NCBI GenBank assembly: GCA_951406725.2 | Contig: OX597829.1 | Location: forward strand, 11,098,001 to 11,162,000 | Direction of reading: 5' to 3' | DNA length: 64,000 bases | From: Octopus vulgaris | Taxonomy: Eukaryota | Shown: positions 7,490 to 56,882 of the stretch, piece after piece | Layout of the letters: every line of letters starts with the position of its first letter | Position numbering within the stretch: the first letter of the stretch is position 1 | The notes under the pieces: model-generated | Databases searched by the model: none | Seen by the model: the letters and a program-made list of their open reading frames with translations, nothing else | Told to the model about the DNA's origin: nothing | Translations under genes and position numbers: made by a program

Positions 7490-7857
7490 TTAAATGAGGG
7501 TGAGAAATTAGATATAGAATTTAATTAACATTGATTTCACACCAGTGGTCTAGCATATAAAAAAACTGAAGGTTCAGAAAAATTGTTCTCAAGAAAAATT
7601 TAGCCAAACAACCAAAACGTAATCGAGCAAGACAAAAGTCTGTTTTACGAGTCTGACTTTGTGCGGACGTCCTAGTATGCAGTCCTGCAAATTATATTCA
7701 TCTGGACGGTCGCACCGATGATCTACAGACATTTATGTAAGTAAAATTACGTAATATGTTAATAGTGAAACATGTATGCGAATAATCCATATTTTTATTG
7801 CTTTTTCTTTTGTCTTGCTCGATTACGATTTGGTTGTTTTGCTAAATTTTTCTTGAG
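7490..7857. mobile_element. Penelope pLTR/retrozyme-like unit with inverted repeat and HHR
   Basis: ~50-bp inverted repeat at 7588-7638 / 7807-7857 and HHR at 7710-7781. Shares ATGCTAGACCACTGGT (reverse strand) with the 16924-17660 element. Confidence 0.7.
7710..7781 (+). ncRNA. Type I hammerhead ribozyme, CCGAUGA core
   Basis: TCGCA-CCGATGA-[stem II CTA...TAG with extension]-GAAACATGTA-TGCGA. Perfect 5-bp stem I, palindromic stem III ACATGT, GUA triplet. Confidence 0.75.
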
Positions 7858-7959
7858 GACATTTCTTAGTATAAGACCATAGGGGATCTATTTCTAGCAT
7901 AAGGGTGTCCACATAGTGGATTTCCTCTAATATGTATATAATACAGTTTTATATATATA

Positions 7960-8493
7960 CTAGCAGTATCGCCCGGCGTTGCTCGGGTTTGTAAGGGAAA
8001 TAACTATATAAGCATTTTTAGAGAGTTACTTCCCTTATAAATTCGGGCTTTCTTAGCCATTTTTGTTTTGGTGTCTTCAAGCCATGAAGTCGTTGTTCTA
8101 AAAGAACGCTGGTTTCCTTCACAACGCATTACGACGTTGATTTCTTTACACTCCCTTCCCCACAGCTTCACGAGGGAGGGAAGGGGGAGAAGCAAACAGG
8201 TGCAGCTGTGAGCGTGGACGCCAACTCCGCCGCCATCGACACACGATGCATTTTATGCATTAAAATGGAATAAAATATGATGTTAAATTATTTTTAAAAT
8301 CGTAGACTCATCGTTGACGCGCGCTAATAGTCAGACAGGCTCGATATGAATCACGACTATAAGATACCCGAATTTGGTTAAACTGCATCTCAAAATGTGG
8401 GAGGAGTTAGGAATCTAAATCGAAGGGGACAGACACTCACACAACTAGAGTTTTATATATATATATATATATATATATATATATATATATAGA
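7960..8493 (-). mobile_element. Non-autonomous Helitron
   Basis: The minus strand ends in the hairpin CCCGAGCAACGCCGGG followed by CTAG|T. The 5' end is TC-TATATA...AAAACTCTAG next to a microsatellite. Confidence 0.75.
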
Positions 8494-8535
8494 GAGAGAG
8501 AGAGAGAGAGAGAGAGAGAGAGAGAGATTGATTTA

Positions 8536-9423
8536 CAGGGTGCGATGTGTAAATAGTAGTCGTGTTATATTTTTAACTTCGTGCATGCGCATTCTTTATC
8601 TTTAATTTTGTCAAATACACAGTATAGTAGGATCAGTTGTGCACCATCTGTGAGTAAAATAACACCATGACGCAGTTCACTCTACCAGAAATTTTTGAAA
8701 GGACATGTTGCATTACTTGGCATTCGCGCCGGAAGATCTAATACGAATATTTCAGAATGTTTGGGTGTCACACTGAGGACAGTGCAATCTGGGGATATGT
8801 ACCGAGAGTGATAAAAATCAAGCATCCAGTCAACATCATGGTATTTTGAGTGATCATTAGTGATGGCAACGTTATGCCCCCATTCATCTTCCCACACAGC
8901 CTCAAGCTCAACACAGAGGCATACATGAAGTGCCTGAAAGAGGTAGTGCTGCCCTAGGTCAAAAGAATGGCTGCTGGAAAACCCTGTGTCTGGCAACAGG
9001 ACTCTGCACCATGCCACGCATACAAGAGAAACAAGTCATTGCTATCATACAATTTCTGCGACCACATCACCCCTAACATCTGACCACCCAACTCCCCAGA
9101 CTGCAACCTCCTTTGATTACGTGTGGGGTGCAATTGAGCAGGAAGCAAACAAAGCTCCTTGTAACACCAAAGATGAACTGAAGGCAAAGATTATGGTAGC
9201 ATTCACCAACTTAAACAAGGAGACCATCCAGAAGAGTTGCAGGATATTCTGAAGTTGTCTGGAGGCTGTGGTTGAAGCCAATGGTGATTTTATTGAATAA
9301 ATTTACTCTTTAGTATTTGAAGATATTTTCATGTAATTTTGGTAAATATATCTGTTAAAACGAGAAGTCAGTGTTATTTTCATTTTTGTGTAATTTAGAC
9401 GACAATTTATTCACTGCACCCTG
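8536..9423 (+). mobile_element. Internally deleted Tc1/mariner element (maT/DD37D-like)
   Basis: TA-CAGGGTGC ... GCACCCTG-TA ends, with remnants WQQDSAPCH and PPNSPDCN...DYVWGAIE. Confidence 0.85.
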
Positions 9424-9930
9424 TATATATACATGTAGATATATATATATATATATATGTGTATGTATGTATGTGTGTATGTGTGTGTGTGTGTGTGTGT
9501 ATGCGTGTGTGTATTCTCATTCATGTACATATATTATATATATATATGTGAGTATTATTCTCTTAATTAAAATGTTTCACTTTAGTCTACGTAGACTTCC
9601 GGTTTTCATCTCAAATTACTGACGTCATTATTGCCGAAATCGATCACATGACGCTTCATTTAAAAGATTTTGTTGAATTTCACAGACTGTTTTAATACCA
9701 TTTCAATTTAGTTTTATTTTTCAGCGTTTTCAATTAAATCTAGTTAATATTTCAATGTCTCTGTGTGTTTTTTTAACATGATTTATGCAAGGTCCTCTGT
9801 AAATGTTTCCAAGAAAATTTCTTACATCTTAAATCAAATAACACTGCTGCTGGTGGAAAAGTGTTCTGTCTCAACGCTAAACATACATACATACATACAT
9901 ACATACATACATACATACATACATACATAC

Positions 9931-53980: not shown

Positions 53981-54557
53981 AAGAAGCTTGTTTCACCAAA
54001 ACATGGTCCTGGGTTCAGTCTCACTGCATGGCACCTTGAGCAAGTGACACCTAGACTAGCCACGGGCTGACCAAAGCCTTGTGAATGGATTTGTTAGACG
54101 GAAACTGAAAGAAACCCGTCATATATATATATATATACTACTACTACTACTACTACTACTACTACTACTACTACTACTACTACTACTACTAATATGGGAT
54201 AAAACATTTTTTCATAAATTTTTTTTATCTAAAGTGGCATATAAAGTCTATTCTTAGCATATTGGCATAGAAATAATTTTTCTTTTTCCCTTTTTTTATA
54301 AGTTGTATATATATATATATATATATATATATATATATATATATATATATATACGTCGTCATAAGACTTTTATGAACTTCTGAGTGAAATAGTTCGTTTA
54401 TGCATTAATGGTGTTCGAAGCACATCACTCAGAGCTATACAAAATAGCATGGAAATATTGGGTTGAAAAATCATTTTTGGATAGATGTCGAAGGTACTCT
54501 CATATTCACATGCTCTTCTTTATAGCTGTATATGATGCCATTATTCCAAACATCAGT

Positions 54558-54940
54558 GGAGGCGCAATGGCCCAGTGGTTAGGGCAGCGGACTCGCGGTC
54601 ATAGGATCGCGGTTTCGATTCCCAGACCGGGCGTTGTGAGTGTTTATTGAGTGAAAACACCTAAAGCTCCACGAGGCTCCGGCAGGGGATGGTGGTGATC
54701 CCTGCTGTACTCTTTCACCACAACTTTCTCTCACTCTTACTTCCTGTTTCTGTTGTACCTGTATTTCAAAGGGCCGGCCTTGTCACTCTCTGTGTCACGC
54801 TGAATATCCCCGAGAACTACGTTAAGGGTACACGTGTCTGTGGAGTGCTCAGCCACTTACACGTTAATTTCACGAGCAGGCTGTTCCGTTGATTCGGATC
54901 AACCGGAACCCTCGTCGTCGTAACCGACGGAGTGCTTCCA
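54558..54940 (+). mobile_element. tRNA-headed SINE family C
   Basis: GGAGGCGCAATGGCCCAGTGGTTAGGGCAGCGG...GGTTTCGATTCCC head followed by ~300 bp of non-tRNA body. CATTATTCCAAACAT and CCATTCCAAACAT flank it (possible TSD). Confidence 0.8.
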
Positions 54941-55274
54941 TCCATTCCAAACATTACTTGCGTGTGCATGTATGCGTATACGTGTTTATGTATGTATGTG
55001 CATGTACATATGTATGTATATATCTACGTATACATATGTGCATGTATGTATATGTGTACGTTCGCATGTATGAGCATATATAAATATATATATATATATA
55101 TATATATATTTGTTGTGCAAGATTTTTTATGTGAAGTCGTGTGTTGAAACAGATATTGTTATATTTCGGAATGGTCATTTTGCCAGTTTAGCCAATAAAA
55201 ACATACGCACCATATATTTGGTGTTACTTTGCTTCAGCGTTATTTATTTTTTACATTAATCTTAATCTTATTTC

Positions 55275-55318
55275 GGCCAGAGTTCTTTCGTCACACTCCT
55301 GTGACCGCATCAGTGGTC
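55275..55318 (-). ncRNA. Hammerhead-like motif (CUGAUGC core)
   Basis: Reverse complement GACCA-CTGATGC-G-GTCACA ggag TGTGAC-GAAA-GAAC-TC-TGGCC, inside the fold-back 55155-55883. Confidence 0.5.
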
Positions 55319-56831
55319 TTTTGCTTTCTTCTTTCTTATTTGTGTGTCTCTCCTTACTAACCGTCAGCCATTTTGTATTTCTATTGTATGTCTTCATTTG
55401 CGCATGCTTATATCTCTATGTGCGTCTATGTTTATTTAGTGTGTGTGGGGGGATGCCTGTAATATTTGTATCTTCTGTTTATATACGTTCGTGTAATTTG
55501 TTTTTGTTGTTGTTGTTTTTGTTTATTCTTATTTTGTTCATGTGCTTACATCCACATATTATTATCATTACGTATACTTGTATGTGCGTATGTATAACAA
55601 CAATACTAGTAATAATAATAATAATAATAATAATAATAATAATAATAATAATAATAATAATAATAATAAATAAATAAATAAAACATACATACATACAAGC
55701 ATACGTAATGATAATAATAATAAGTGGATGTAAACTCATAAACAAAATAAGAATAAACAAAAAGAACAACAACAAAATAAGAATAAAAACTAAATAACAC
55801 AAGCAAAATAACACCAAATATATAGTGCGTGTGTTTTTATTGACTAAACTGGCAAAATGACCATTCCGAAATATAACAATATATATATATATATACGTAT
55901 ATACATCCGTCCGTCCGTACGCCTATCTGTCTGTCCACTGTTTTGCGTTCTTGTCCCATTTTGTATTATATATATATACATATATATATATATATATATG
56001 TGTGTGTGTGTATGTGTGTGTGTGTGTGTGTCTGTGTGTGTGTGTGTGTGTGTGTGTGTGTGTGTGTGTGTATCTATGTATGTATGTATGTATGTATATA
56101 AGTGTGTATGTGTGTATGTATGTATGCATGTATATATGTATGTGGATGGATGTAAAGATCGTCGGCTAAAGGGTGTGAACCTAAGAAGCCATTCAAAGAT
56201 GAGCTGTACTCACTATACCCTTTCACAGTCTCGCTGGTGTAGGATAATTGGAGATGTGAAGGCGAAACACGCCCGCACTACAGAGAGCTGTGAGAAAAAC
56301 TTGTGAAGGCTTGTCAAATAATATATCGTCCATTGAATCAGAGATAAATATATCTCGTCTGCGAGTGAAGTTGCATAACAACGGGATTTCAGTCATCAAA
56401 GTTTCGCAACTGAACGATGAGATGGTCATCAATCGATATGATGAACAGCCATAATAAAGATATATATATATATATATATATATATATATATATATATATA
56501 TATATAGAGAGAGAGAGAGAGAGAGAGAGAGAGAGAGAGAGAGAGAAACAATTAATCCAAATTTGCGCAAATTTACAGATCTGATTATTGATGACGAAGT
56601 ATTCAGTTAAATTGGTTTTTAGTATATGGCTGTTATATATCTATACATAATTTCATACCTATATATACATATGTAAAGAGAGAGTGAGTGACAAACAGAC
56701 CGACATGAATTTATATCTATATGAGTATATTTGATATACTTATATATAAATAATTGCAGCGTGGAAGGTGTTTGTAAGCCATTCAAGAAACACACAAAAG
56801 CCGTTCGATTCACTTCAACATTTAAGTTTAA

Positions 56832-56882
56832 TTTGTCAAAATATTTTCGTCGCTTTAAGACCGCGACCTGTTCACTGACAAA
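56832..56882 (-). ncRNA. Hammerhead variant with G3:C8 core
   Basis: Reverse complement TTTGTCA-GTGAACA-G-GTCGC ggtcttaaa GCGAC-GAAAATATTT-TGACAAA. Perfect 7-bp stem I and 5-bp stem II. Confidence 0.65.

Follow-up and report, generated by a model that had tools for sequence, protein, structure and literature searches.

Palindromic stem III sequences of hammerhead motifs in an Octopus vulgaris locus: probable symmetry for double-hammerhead cleavage in likely Penelope-like elements

The closest described relatives of the hammerhead-like motifs present in a 64,000-nucleotide stretch of Octopus vulgaris DNA (GCA_951406725.2, contig OX597829.1, positions 11,098,001 to 11,162,000; the whole stretch is referred to here as the window) are the minimal hammerhead ribozymes (min-HHRs) of Penelope-like elements (PLEs). 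Min-HHRs occur mostly as solitary copies and carry a palindromic helix III, and a dimer model with regulation by the multimeric state has been proposed for them (PMC4209133; this and all other publications are cited for their accessible sections). The minimal motif did not cleave as a monomer and cleaved weakly as a dimer, and its consensus in Fig. S3 of the same study reads 'GAAAN Palind NU H', with ACGT as the palindrome (hereafter, the word) in 24 of the 44 rows covered, across phyla (PMC4209133). The palindrome changes from species to species, and both Schistosoma and Aedes have two variants of it (Perreault et al. 2011, PMC3088659, Fig. S8); in Aedes, the word can differ between families whose stem I is the same (PMC4209133). 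Short palindromic stem III sequences and dimer cleavage are also reported in PMC6765202, in which a tandem layout aids pair formation, and the in vivo role of PLE hammerheads has been described as unclear (PMC8557442). Both strands of this single window were scanned, and a curated list of 19 motifs (11 on the plus and 8 on the minus strand within 64 kb) was compiled, partly by seeking the words named in a preliminary description of the locus. We propose that these motifs are probably type I hammerhead ribozymes from the terminal repeats of several PLE families, and that the palindromic stem III provides the symmetry for a double hammerhead. The copies are likely dispersed, truncated, inverted and decayed by now. 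Earlier work (PMC4209133, PMC3088659) has already described palindromic stem III sequences, cleavage restricted to dimers and palindromes that vary, and the locus adds new members to this known feature.

Like the min-HHRs of Cervera and de la Pena 2014 (PMC4209133), the octopus motifs have a type I layout, with an extra base behind A9, a short stem I and a U3-A8 variant, and they occur mostly as solitary copies, together with close opposite-strand pairs. Unlike them, several motifs have stem II regions of 28-100 nt and a mismatch at the stem II base, the words reach 8-10 nt, and some cores carry U4C, G3-C8 or T6. The C3G/G8C swap, as in motif 56875, partly rescues a PLE ribozyme (PMC11167929). 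Further similarities link the locus to the Hydra-clade PLE hammerheads (Craig et al. 2021, PMC8557442), namely a GIY-YIG remnant with a CxCX5C linker upstream of motif 35153, a U-U or similar mismatch at the stem II base, and words that start ACAG..CTGT or ACAA..TTGT, a form also present in the Hydra elements of corals, anemones and hemichordates; ACAG-NN-CTGT occurs in three species besides Hydra magnipapillata (PMC8557442). However, Hydra-clade words mostly have an unpaired or mismatched centre of 1-3 nt, whereas ACAGCTGT and ACAATTGT are perfect and two bases shorter. The Nematostella row of PMC3088659, AC-AGCU-GU by our inference from a garbled layout, equals ACAGCTGT. A weak helix III, a palindromic loop and more active dimers are shared with avocado sunblotch viroid and with newt and axolotl retrozymes (cited second-hand from PMC6466107 and PMC7229834), but viroid and retrozyme double hammerheads belong to multimeric RNAs or to repeats of 170-400 nt arranged in tandem, in contrast to the dispersed remnants described here.

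The enrichment of palindromes does not depend on having searched for them. Our scan required the core, stem I, stem II, GAAA and UH, permitted an extra base behind A9 and demanded no pairing of stem III. At a score of at least 14 it returned 14 motifs, nine of them with a palindromic word, against means of 1.43 motifs and 0.02 palindromes (maximum 1 palindrome) in 100 dinucleotide block shuffles. With a first version of the scan and a score of at least 20, four of four motifs were palindromic, compared with 0.85 motifs and 0.05 palindromes in shuffles. These unbiased motifs show the type I layout (CUGANGA and GAAA core, NUH site, order stem I-core-stem II-GAAA-stem III-UH-stem I), and the palindromic 15.2-16.2 pair with loop 3 by which min-HHRs were defined (PMC4209133) was found in 9 of the 14. 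The preliminary description had stem III as 'nearly always' palindromic; palindromes are indeed far more frequent than in shuffles, but the proportion is about 9/14 in the unbiased scan and 16/19 in the curated list. All eight palindromes listed there stand directly after GAA (G12-A13-A14) and before the H17 base and its stem I strand, and the strand 3' of each word is complementary to the sequence preceding a CUGANGA-type core. The symmetry extends to the loop: in each of the seven distinct words of at least 6 nt, the middle four bases are self-complementary (chance about 8e-9, and 2e-5 when only the four top unbiased matches are counted). Since a monomer hairpin has no need of a self-complementary centre, this supports the dimer model. 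Most copies have a defect in the core or stem I, and a G-C pair at the stem II base, corresponding to the G10.1-C11.1 pair of min-HHRs, is present in 9 of 16 motifs (motif 57806, misregistered by one base, is left out), with a wobble or mismatch in the rest, a situation also seen in Hydra-clade rows (PMC8557442).

The computed energies likewise favour a dimer. In the monomer, ACGT cannot close a hairpin and the other words do so at +1.5 to +6.0 kcal/mol; homoduplexes of the words span 4-10 bp and reach -4.3 to -17.7 kcal/mol, initiation excluded. This is in agreement with the earlier statement that hammerheads with an unstable stem III cleave as double hammerheads, which is published for min-HHRs (PMC4209133). 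Based on these considerations and on published work, we propose the following hypothetical course of events, in which (i) two repeats of a tandem PLE transcript would pair word to word; (ii) the 5' stem I strand of each copy would pair with the 3' strand of its partner, and both sites would be cut; and (iii) the element's own protein would possibly assist cleavage. Each site of a double hammerhead combines the core of one copy with the UH of the other, so that by topology stem I also forms between copies. Any palindrome with A..U ends, preferably AC..GU, would fit this geometry, so that compensatory changes would let words drift and lineages would come to differ in them. In the simplest account, selection maintains the symmetry that homodimer pairing demands, while the identity of the word drifts. 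A solitary copy, with no partner in cis and usually decayed, would be silent with or without a code, and the rejection of foreign partners would be a by-product of stem I and stem III together and not a selected code.

In motif 17357, ACTGATCAGT is complementary to the motif's own core CTGAT (17347-17420, +), and the monomer is therefore predicted to fold with its core sequestered. Predicted monomer folds often pair the word with the CUGA core, but a general 'core-trap' was rejected: in a comparison with all palindromes of equal length, the effect was not significant for words of at least 6 nt (z=1.26, or 0.89 with 15.2 fixed); for all 13 motifs z was 2.31, and the best single case was 17357 (rank 0.018).

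Two related pairs of copies have changed their word and remained palindromic. The hammerhead-like motif 45651 (45644..45776, +) has a canonical core, a 100-nt stem II region, the word ATGATCAT at 45761-45768 and a stem I of 6-7 bp, and self-comparison aligns it with a sibling near 43870 at 72.7% over 121 nt and 77.3% over 88 nt. An inversion near 43977 has divided the sibling, so that 43856-43976 aligns on the minus strand and the part with the core, 43979-44066, on the plus strand. Its 3' half (43866..43978, -) comprises the remainder of stem II, GAA, the word ACGCGCGT at 43874-43881 and a stem I strand; its 5' half (43979..44066, +) contains the core CTGAAGA at 44018-44024, homologous to that of 45651, without GAAA or stem III. 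With the core at +44018 and the stem III half at -43881, on opposite strands, the copy near 43870 is not an intact ribozyme, although its word is still informative. The one core-like 7-mer on the same strand, CTCAGGA (43926, -), was discarded as an alternative core, as it has no G5 and does not align with the core of 45651. ATGATCAT and ACGCGCGT differ in two pairs, each changed on both sides, for which the neutral chance is 6e-5 to 4e-4 (calculated post hoc). One changed pair fits CpG decay (C-to-T and G-to-A), and the central CG-to-AT change is a double transversion. The palindrome swap between siblings proposed earlier is thus upheld as to relatedness and the two doubly changed pairs, but the copy near 43870 is a fragment split by inversion and not a working sibling. 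In the second related pair, motifs 7715 (ACATGT) and 17357 (ACTGATCAGT), both word length and stem I have changed. That two related pairs changed their word and stayed palindromic argues for selection on symmetry, not for a code, and these two natural cases back the dimer model from the evolutionary side.

Three motifs are preceded by protein remnants, which provide the link to PLEs. In the case of 35153, this is a broken GIY-YIG endonuclease remnant about 1 kb upstream (33688..34116, +; GIY-YIG E=0.038) with the CxCX5C linker CNCRPGTTC. This fragment finds 570 relatives, the long ones of which carry RW[K/R], DK[T/S], CxCX5C, CxxC and CxH, the Hydra-defining motifs; all of these are present in homologues P0006 and P0150. 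The RWK/DKT motifs occur in the homologues only, and the reverse transcriptase (RT) part is absent from the window. By tblastn, 146 of 148 proteins match 33688-34116, a set gathered using that very fragment as the query. A weak, Hydra-like C-terminal remnant (CxxC..E..N; 47774..47890, -) about 430 nt upstream of 47337 is matched by 1 of the 148 proteins (E=5e-5). The third remnant, upstream of 12988, is the C-terminal end of what is likely a PLE GIY-YIG endonuclease (12044..12229, +, ending at about 12247); it is also matched by 1 of 148 proteins and appears Neptune-like by eye against Neptune rows, while Pfam and Atlas assigned it no family, with low Atlas scores. Protein searches returned no longer relatives for 33688 or P0001 and one for 12047. 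With endonuclease remnants upstream of three motifs, two of them Hydra-clade-like, the motifs are likely PLE ribozymes; the origin is supported for these three and inferred for the rest.

An alternative is that monomers cleave with assistance, the PLE protein folding the weak stem III, and that the palindrome is secondary; solitary copies would then be silent through decay and the absence of protein. We consider this unlikely, although several observations speak for it. A Poseidon ribozyme of Anolis did not cleave in the absence of the protein, and insertion in vitro did not depend on cleavage (PMC11167929); a minimal motif cleaved only weakly when built as a dimer or trimer (PMC4209133), and all 14 listed words of Hydra magnipapillata are 9 nt long with an unpaired centre (PMC8557442). 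Furthermore, the T6 present in both copies of family a suggests propagation with a poor core. However, ACGT is unable to close a hairpin, and the loop centres are self-complementary far past chance, a property that a monomer could do without. Help from the protein would not preclude dimers.

The preliminary description also held that the word differs by family and that it may limit cleavage to tandem copies or same-family partners, which would keep solitary copies in host pre-mRNA silent. To define families independently of the word, flanks were compared with core and word removed (153 pairs). Family b comprises 13241, 18040 and 42444 (flank z=12-33) and family a 12988 and 17742 (z=4.9); 7715 and 17357 are also related (z=7.9, outer arm E about 1e-7). 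ACGT is common to four flank-defined families (a, b, 27257 and 43304), two of which, a and b, are paralogues that share the word but differ in stem I pair 4 (C-G vs G-C). ACAGCTGT occurs in two unrelated families, represented by 35153 and 39991 (flank z=0.7), and so does ACATGT, in 7715 and 18503 (z=0.3). The words are therefore not unique to single families. Among the 11 family-level words, there are four identical pairs, compared with 0.96 for random palindromes, one of the four (a/b) being shared by descent.

In its strong form, the idea is that of a selected partner code, in which families diversify their word so that same-family copies alone pair, sparing the RNA of the host and of other elements. 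This appears doubtful to us. In its favour, exhaustive duplex enumeration for 10 motifs (44 cross pairs) predicted that mismatched words penalise heterodimers by about 6-18 kcal/mol, and with 19 motifs in 64 kb, 11 of them on one strand, it is plausible that a single long transcript would contain mixed pairs. In both related pairs whose words have at least 6 nt, the word has changed, as the code would have it, and motif 45651, its sibling and 47337 combine cross-compatible stems I with three different words. Yet a penalty of this size follows from any two different palindromes, and stem I alone separates 40 of the 44 cross pairs. Both trans stem I helices survive in only 4/44; the median penalty is 12.95 kcal/mol for stem I and 11.05 kcal/mol for stem III, that of stem I being larger in 26 of the 44. 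Nor are the words more orthogonal than random palindromes. None of 300 random palindrome sets cross-pairs as much as the real words, an excess that is due to 9 of 11 words beginning with AC, and with the first two letters fixed, real and random words are equal (-0.23 vs -0.07 +/- 0.46). The recurrence of ACGT, ACAGCTGT and ACATGT in unrelated families speaks against a code as well, and published data point the same way, since 5 of 14 families of Hydra magnipapillata share one word (PMC8557442) and where two families are listed for a species, ACGT is mostly the word of both (PMC4209133). For motifs 45651, 43881 and 47337, whose stem I strands stay compatible, the main barrier would be the word. 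These motifs, in which the word differs and stem I is compatible, and families a and b, in which the reverse holds, separate the two determinants. The proposed restriction to tandem or same-family partners is therefore supported as far as dimer formation goes, but as a code it finds little support, given word sharing, the lack of excess orthogonality and the discrimination that stem I already provides.

We also hypothesise, as a speculative extension that is improbable on present evidence, that the stem III word and stem I together serve as an address in two parts, on which negative frequency-dependent selection acts. With one remnant per 3-4 kb, long introns would hold many same-strand copies, and a family sharing the address of abundant residents would dimerise with them in cis, with the result that host pre-mRNA is cut, and a switch to a rare palindrome would benefit new families. 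The trace of such selection would be motifs 45651, 43881 and 47337, with compatible stems I and three 8-nt words. If true, a selected address would amount to an RNA-based self/non-self system among retrotransposons and would offer an orthogonal set of dimer-gated ribozymes. Lunse, Weinberg and Breaker reportedly describe, judging by their title in RNA Biol 14:1499, PLE hammerhead variants that cleave as dimers. Our literature search, whose coverage did not extend to that article, found no test of heterodimer discrimination between hammerhead families, and cross-family partner discrimination may be unpublished. In the sections cited here, PMC4209133 contains no analysis of pairing across families and PMC3088659 makes no claim about partner discrimination. 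Palindromes are not mentioned in the accessible part of bioRxiv 10.64898/2026.07.22.740005.

Template switching can correct quasi-palindromes to perfect ones, which could in principle create the symmetry in dead copies by mutation, as could two-strand CpG decay, with no selection for pairing. Such an origin is very improbable: one pair between ACGCGCGT and ATGATCAT does show the CpG-decay pattern and other self-inverted stretches exist in the window, but the central CG-to-AT change is a double transversion, the palindromes lie exactly between GAA and H17 and far above shuffles, and the same palindrome position is found across phyla (PMC4209133).

Several observations weigh against our interpretation of the motifs as dimerising PLE ribozymes whose words drift. 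Rfam yielded no hammerhead match in the window at the gathering score and none at E<=10 in two small regions; among the 150 of 304 rows listed for the E-value run, matches were mostly to microsatellites. As Rfam recognises none of the motifs, their identity as ribozymes depends on motif anatomy, and their cleavage is predicted from sequence. A protein remnant lies upstream of just 3 of the 19 motifs, so the PLE origin of the remaining ones likewise derives from anatomy, and no intact tandem element, PLE RT region or full element was found within the window. Inverted arms, which agree with the inverted truncated PLE copies described in the literature, span or abut 6 of 19 motifs compared with 13 of 100 control positions, a modest difference. 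Invertebrate retrozyme ribozymes, whose monomeric constructs cleave, have been described as typically having a stem of 2 bp and a tetraloop (PMC7229834); the 8- and 10-nt words therefore need not be obligate dimers. Finally, the orthogonality test, with 11 words from one window, has low power, and the 4 of 44 cross pairs with a compatible stem I, including 45651/43881, are what a code predicts.

The remaining motifs illustrate the range of architectures and of decay. The type I, hammerhead-like motif 7715 (7710..7781, +) has the U4C core CCGATGA, a long stem II, a 5-bp stem I and the word ACATGT at 7770-7775 (+), and is flanked by an inverted repeat (7578-7638/7807-7867). Its likely relative 17357 (17352..17415, +), also hammerhead-like, has a canonical core and ACTGATCAGT at 17400-17409, between inverted arms at 16924-17049 and 17445-17570. 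Despite the changed stem I and word, 7715-7769 and 17357-17399 (+) share the stem II base CTA-CAG...TAA-TAG with a 3x3-like internal loop, possibly a tertiary-contact site. Hammerhead-like motif 35153 (35149..35203, +) combines the U4C core CCGATGA with a 9-bp stem II and ACAGCTGT at 35191-35198; the weaker 39991 (39988..40111, +), with unrelated flanks, has a 99-nt stem II region, ACAGCTGT at 40100-40107 and a 3-bp stem I. In the decayed minimal motif 27257 (27253..27287, +), the core is of the U3-A8 form (TTGAGAA), the word is ACGT (27279-27282) and stem I is lost. On the minus strand, the decayed 18503 (18467..18509) has AAA in place of GAA, the word ACATGT at 18474-18479 and no remaining stem I, and the equally decayed 43304 (43254..43308) retains a canonical core and ACGT at 43259-43262, with G at position 17 and stem I lost. 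Hammerhead-like motif 47337 (47234..47345, -) has a canonical core and ACAATTGT at 47243-47250. The top-scoring motif, the hammerhead-like 56875 (56832..56882, -), has the swapped G3-C8 core GTGAACA at 56869-56875, a 5-bp stem II, a 7-bp stem I and the word AATATT at 56840-56845 (-). The same core recurs in a weaker candidate at 27146-27152 (-) with a 2-nt AT stem III (score 15.6), which could be due to chance. The U4C core (CCGA) is found in 3 of the 19 motifs, from three different families (7715 and 35153 on the plus strand, 42444 on the minus strand).

Three motifs have no perfect palindrome. In motif 3684 (3640..3690, -), which has a canonical core, GAAA leads into a longer imperfect hairpin in place of a short palindrome; 55313 (55276..55317, -; core CTGATGC), which lies within inverted arms (55157-55250/55787-55878), has the non-palindromic AGAACT; and in 57806 (57801..57850, +; core CTGAGGA) a near-palindrome is centred about GCATGC and the 3' stem I strand enters a (TTA)n tract.

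Families a and b occur together. The minimal hammerheads 12988 of family a (12984..13019, +; core CTGTAGA with T at position 6, ACGT at 13011-13014) and 13241 of family b (13237..13271, +; core CTGACGA, ACGT at 13263-13266) are separated by 253 nt with a (TA)n tract between them. Likewise, the decayed family a copy 17742 (17738..17773, +; core CTGTCGA, AAA replacing GAA, G at 17, ACGT at 17765-17768) is followed after 298 nt by the family b copy 18040 (18036..18070, +; ACGT at 18062-18065, broken stem I). Downstream of each family a copy there is thus first a microsatellite and, beyond it, a copy of family b (12983-13330 and 17737-18100, +). All of these copies carry ACGT, and the arrangement is a natural heterologous tandem pair with differing stem I that represents either an old composite unit or targeted insertion. 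These are the nearest same-strand motif pairs. The possibility of a non-LTR (long terminal repeat) retrozyme, with head-to-tail repeats of 170-400 nt that each contain a canonical hammerhead, was rejected because self-comparison revealed no same-family head-to-tail arrays round any motif. T at core position 6 in both family a copies (12988-12994 and 17742-17748, +) is likely inherited and suggests either that the lineage propagated despite a poor core or that the variant is one not reported before; a natural A6U hammerhead was not found in our literature search. The third family b copy, 42444 (42414..42448, -), has the U4C core CCGACGA and ACGT at 42419-42422. Family b copies are about 200 nt long and begin at a near-identical point after a TA/CA microsatellite (13171 and 17968, +; 42514, -), like a short non-autonomous element with fixed ends. 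One of them is interrupted by an element of the LINE (long interspersed nuclear element) type (13331-15755, +) and resumes at 15755-15799; the inserted element contains an open RT frame of 442 aa (RVT_1, E=8e-32; LINE-type RT at 14348-15673).

The window is AT-rich, with 27-46% GC in 2-kb bins and about 19% simple repeats by masking, and transposon debris is abundant, including mariner/DDE, LINE-type RT, zf-RVT and GIY-YIG remnants. Mariner/DDE transposase remnants lie at 6415-7156 (+) and 16132-16374 (-), and a zf-RVT match at 62886-63998. No host exon was recognised among 149 of 231 reading-frame segments of at least 58 aa plus 10 more, a search that short exons would escape; these segments matched only mariner/DDE, RVT_1, zf-RVT and, weakly, GIY-YIG and unrelated families. 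A repeat of 540-560 bp with (AAT)n ends is present in three copies that are 95-97% identical (31810-33007, +; 61799-62339, -) and contains CTGACGA without GAAA in hammerhead register. Further repeated fragments (35426-35871 and 37417-37897, +; 20759-20937, 61595-61777 and 62734-62823) have no Pfam match; we take them to read like the restriction-like endonuclease end of non-LTR retrotransposons. An abundant family resembling short interspersed nuclear elements, of about 200-230 nt and 75-91% identity, is found at 2044-2420, 23711-23939, 36931-37139, 40961-41195 and 44176-44384. Long self-inverted stretches with 71-98% identity (27442-27737, 28025-28198, 39616-39825, 40546-40906 and 43505-43630) are possibly miniature inverted-repeat transposable elements or fold-back insertions.

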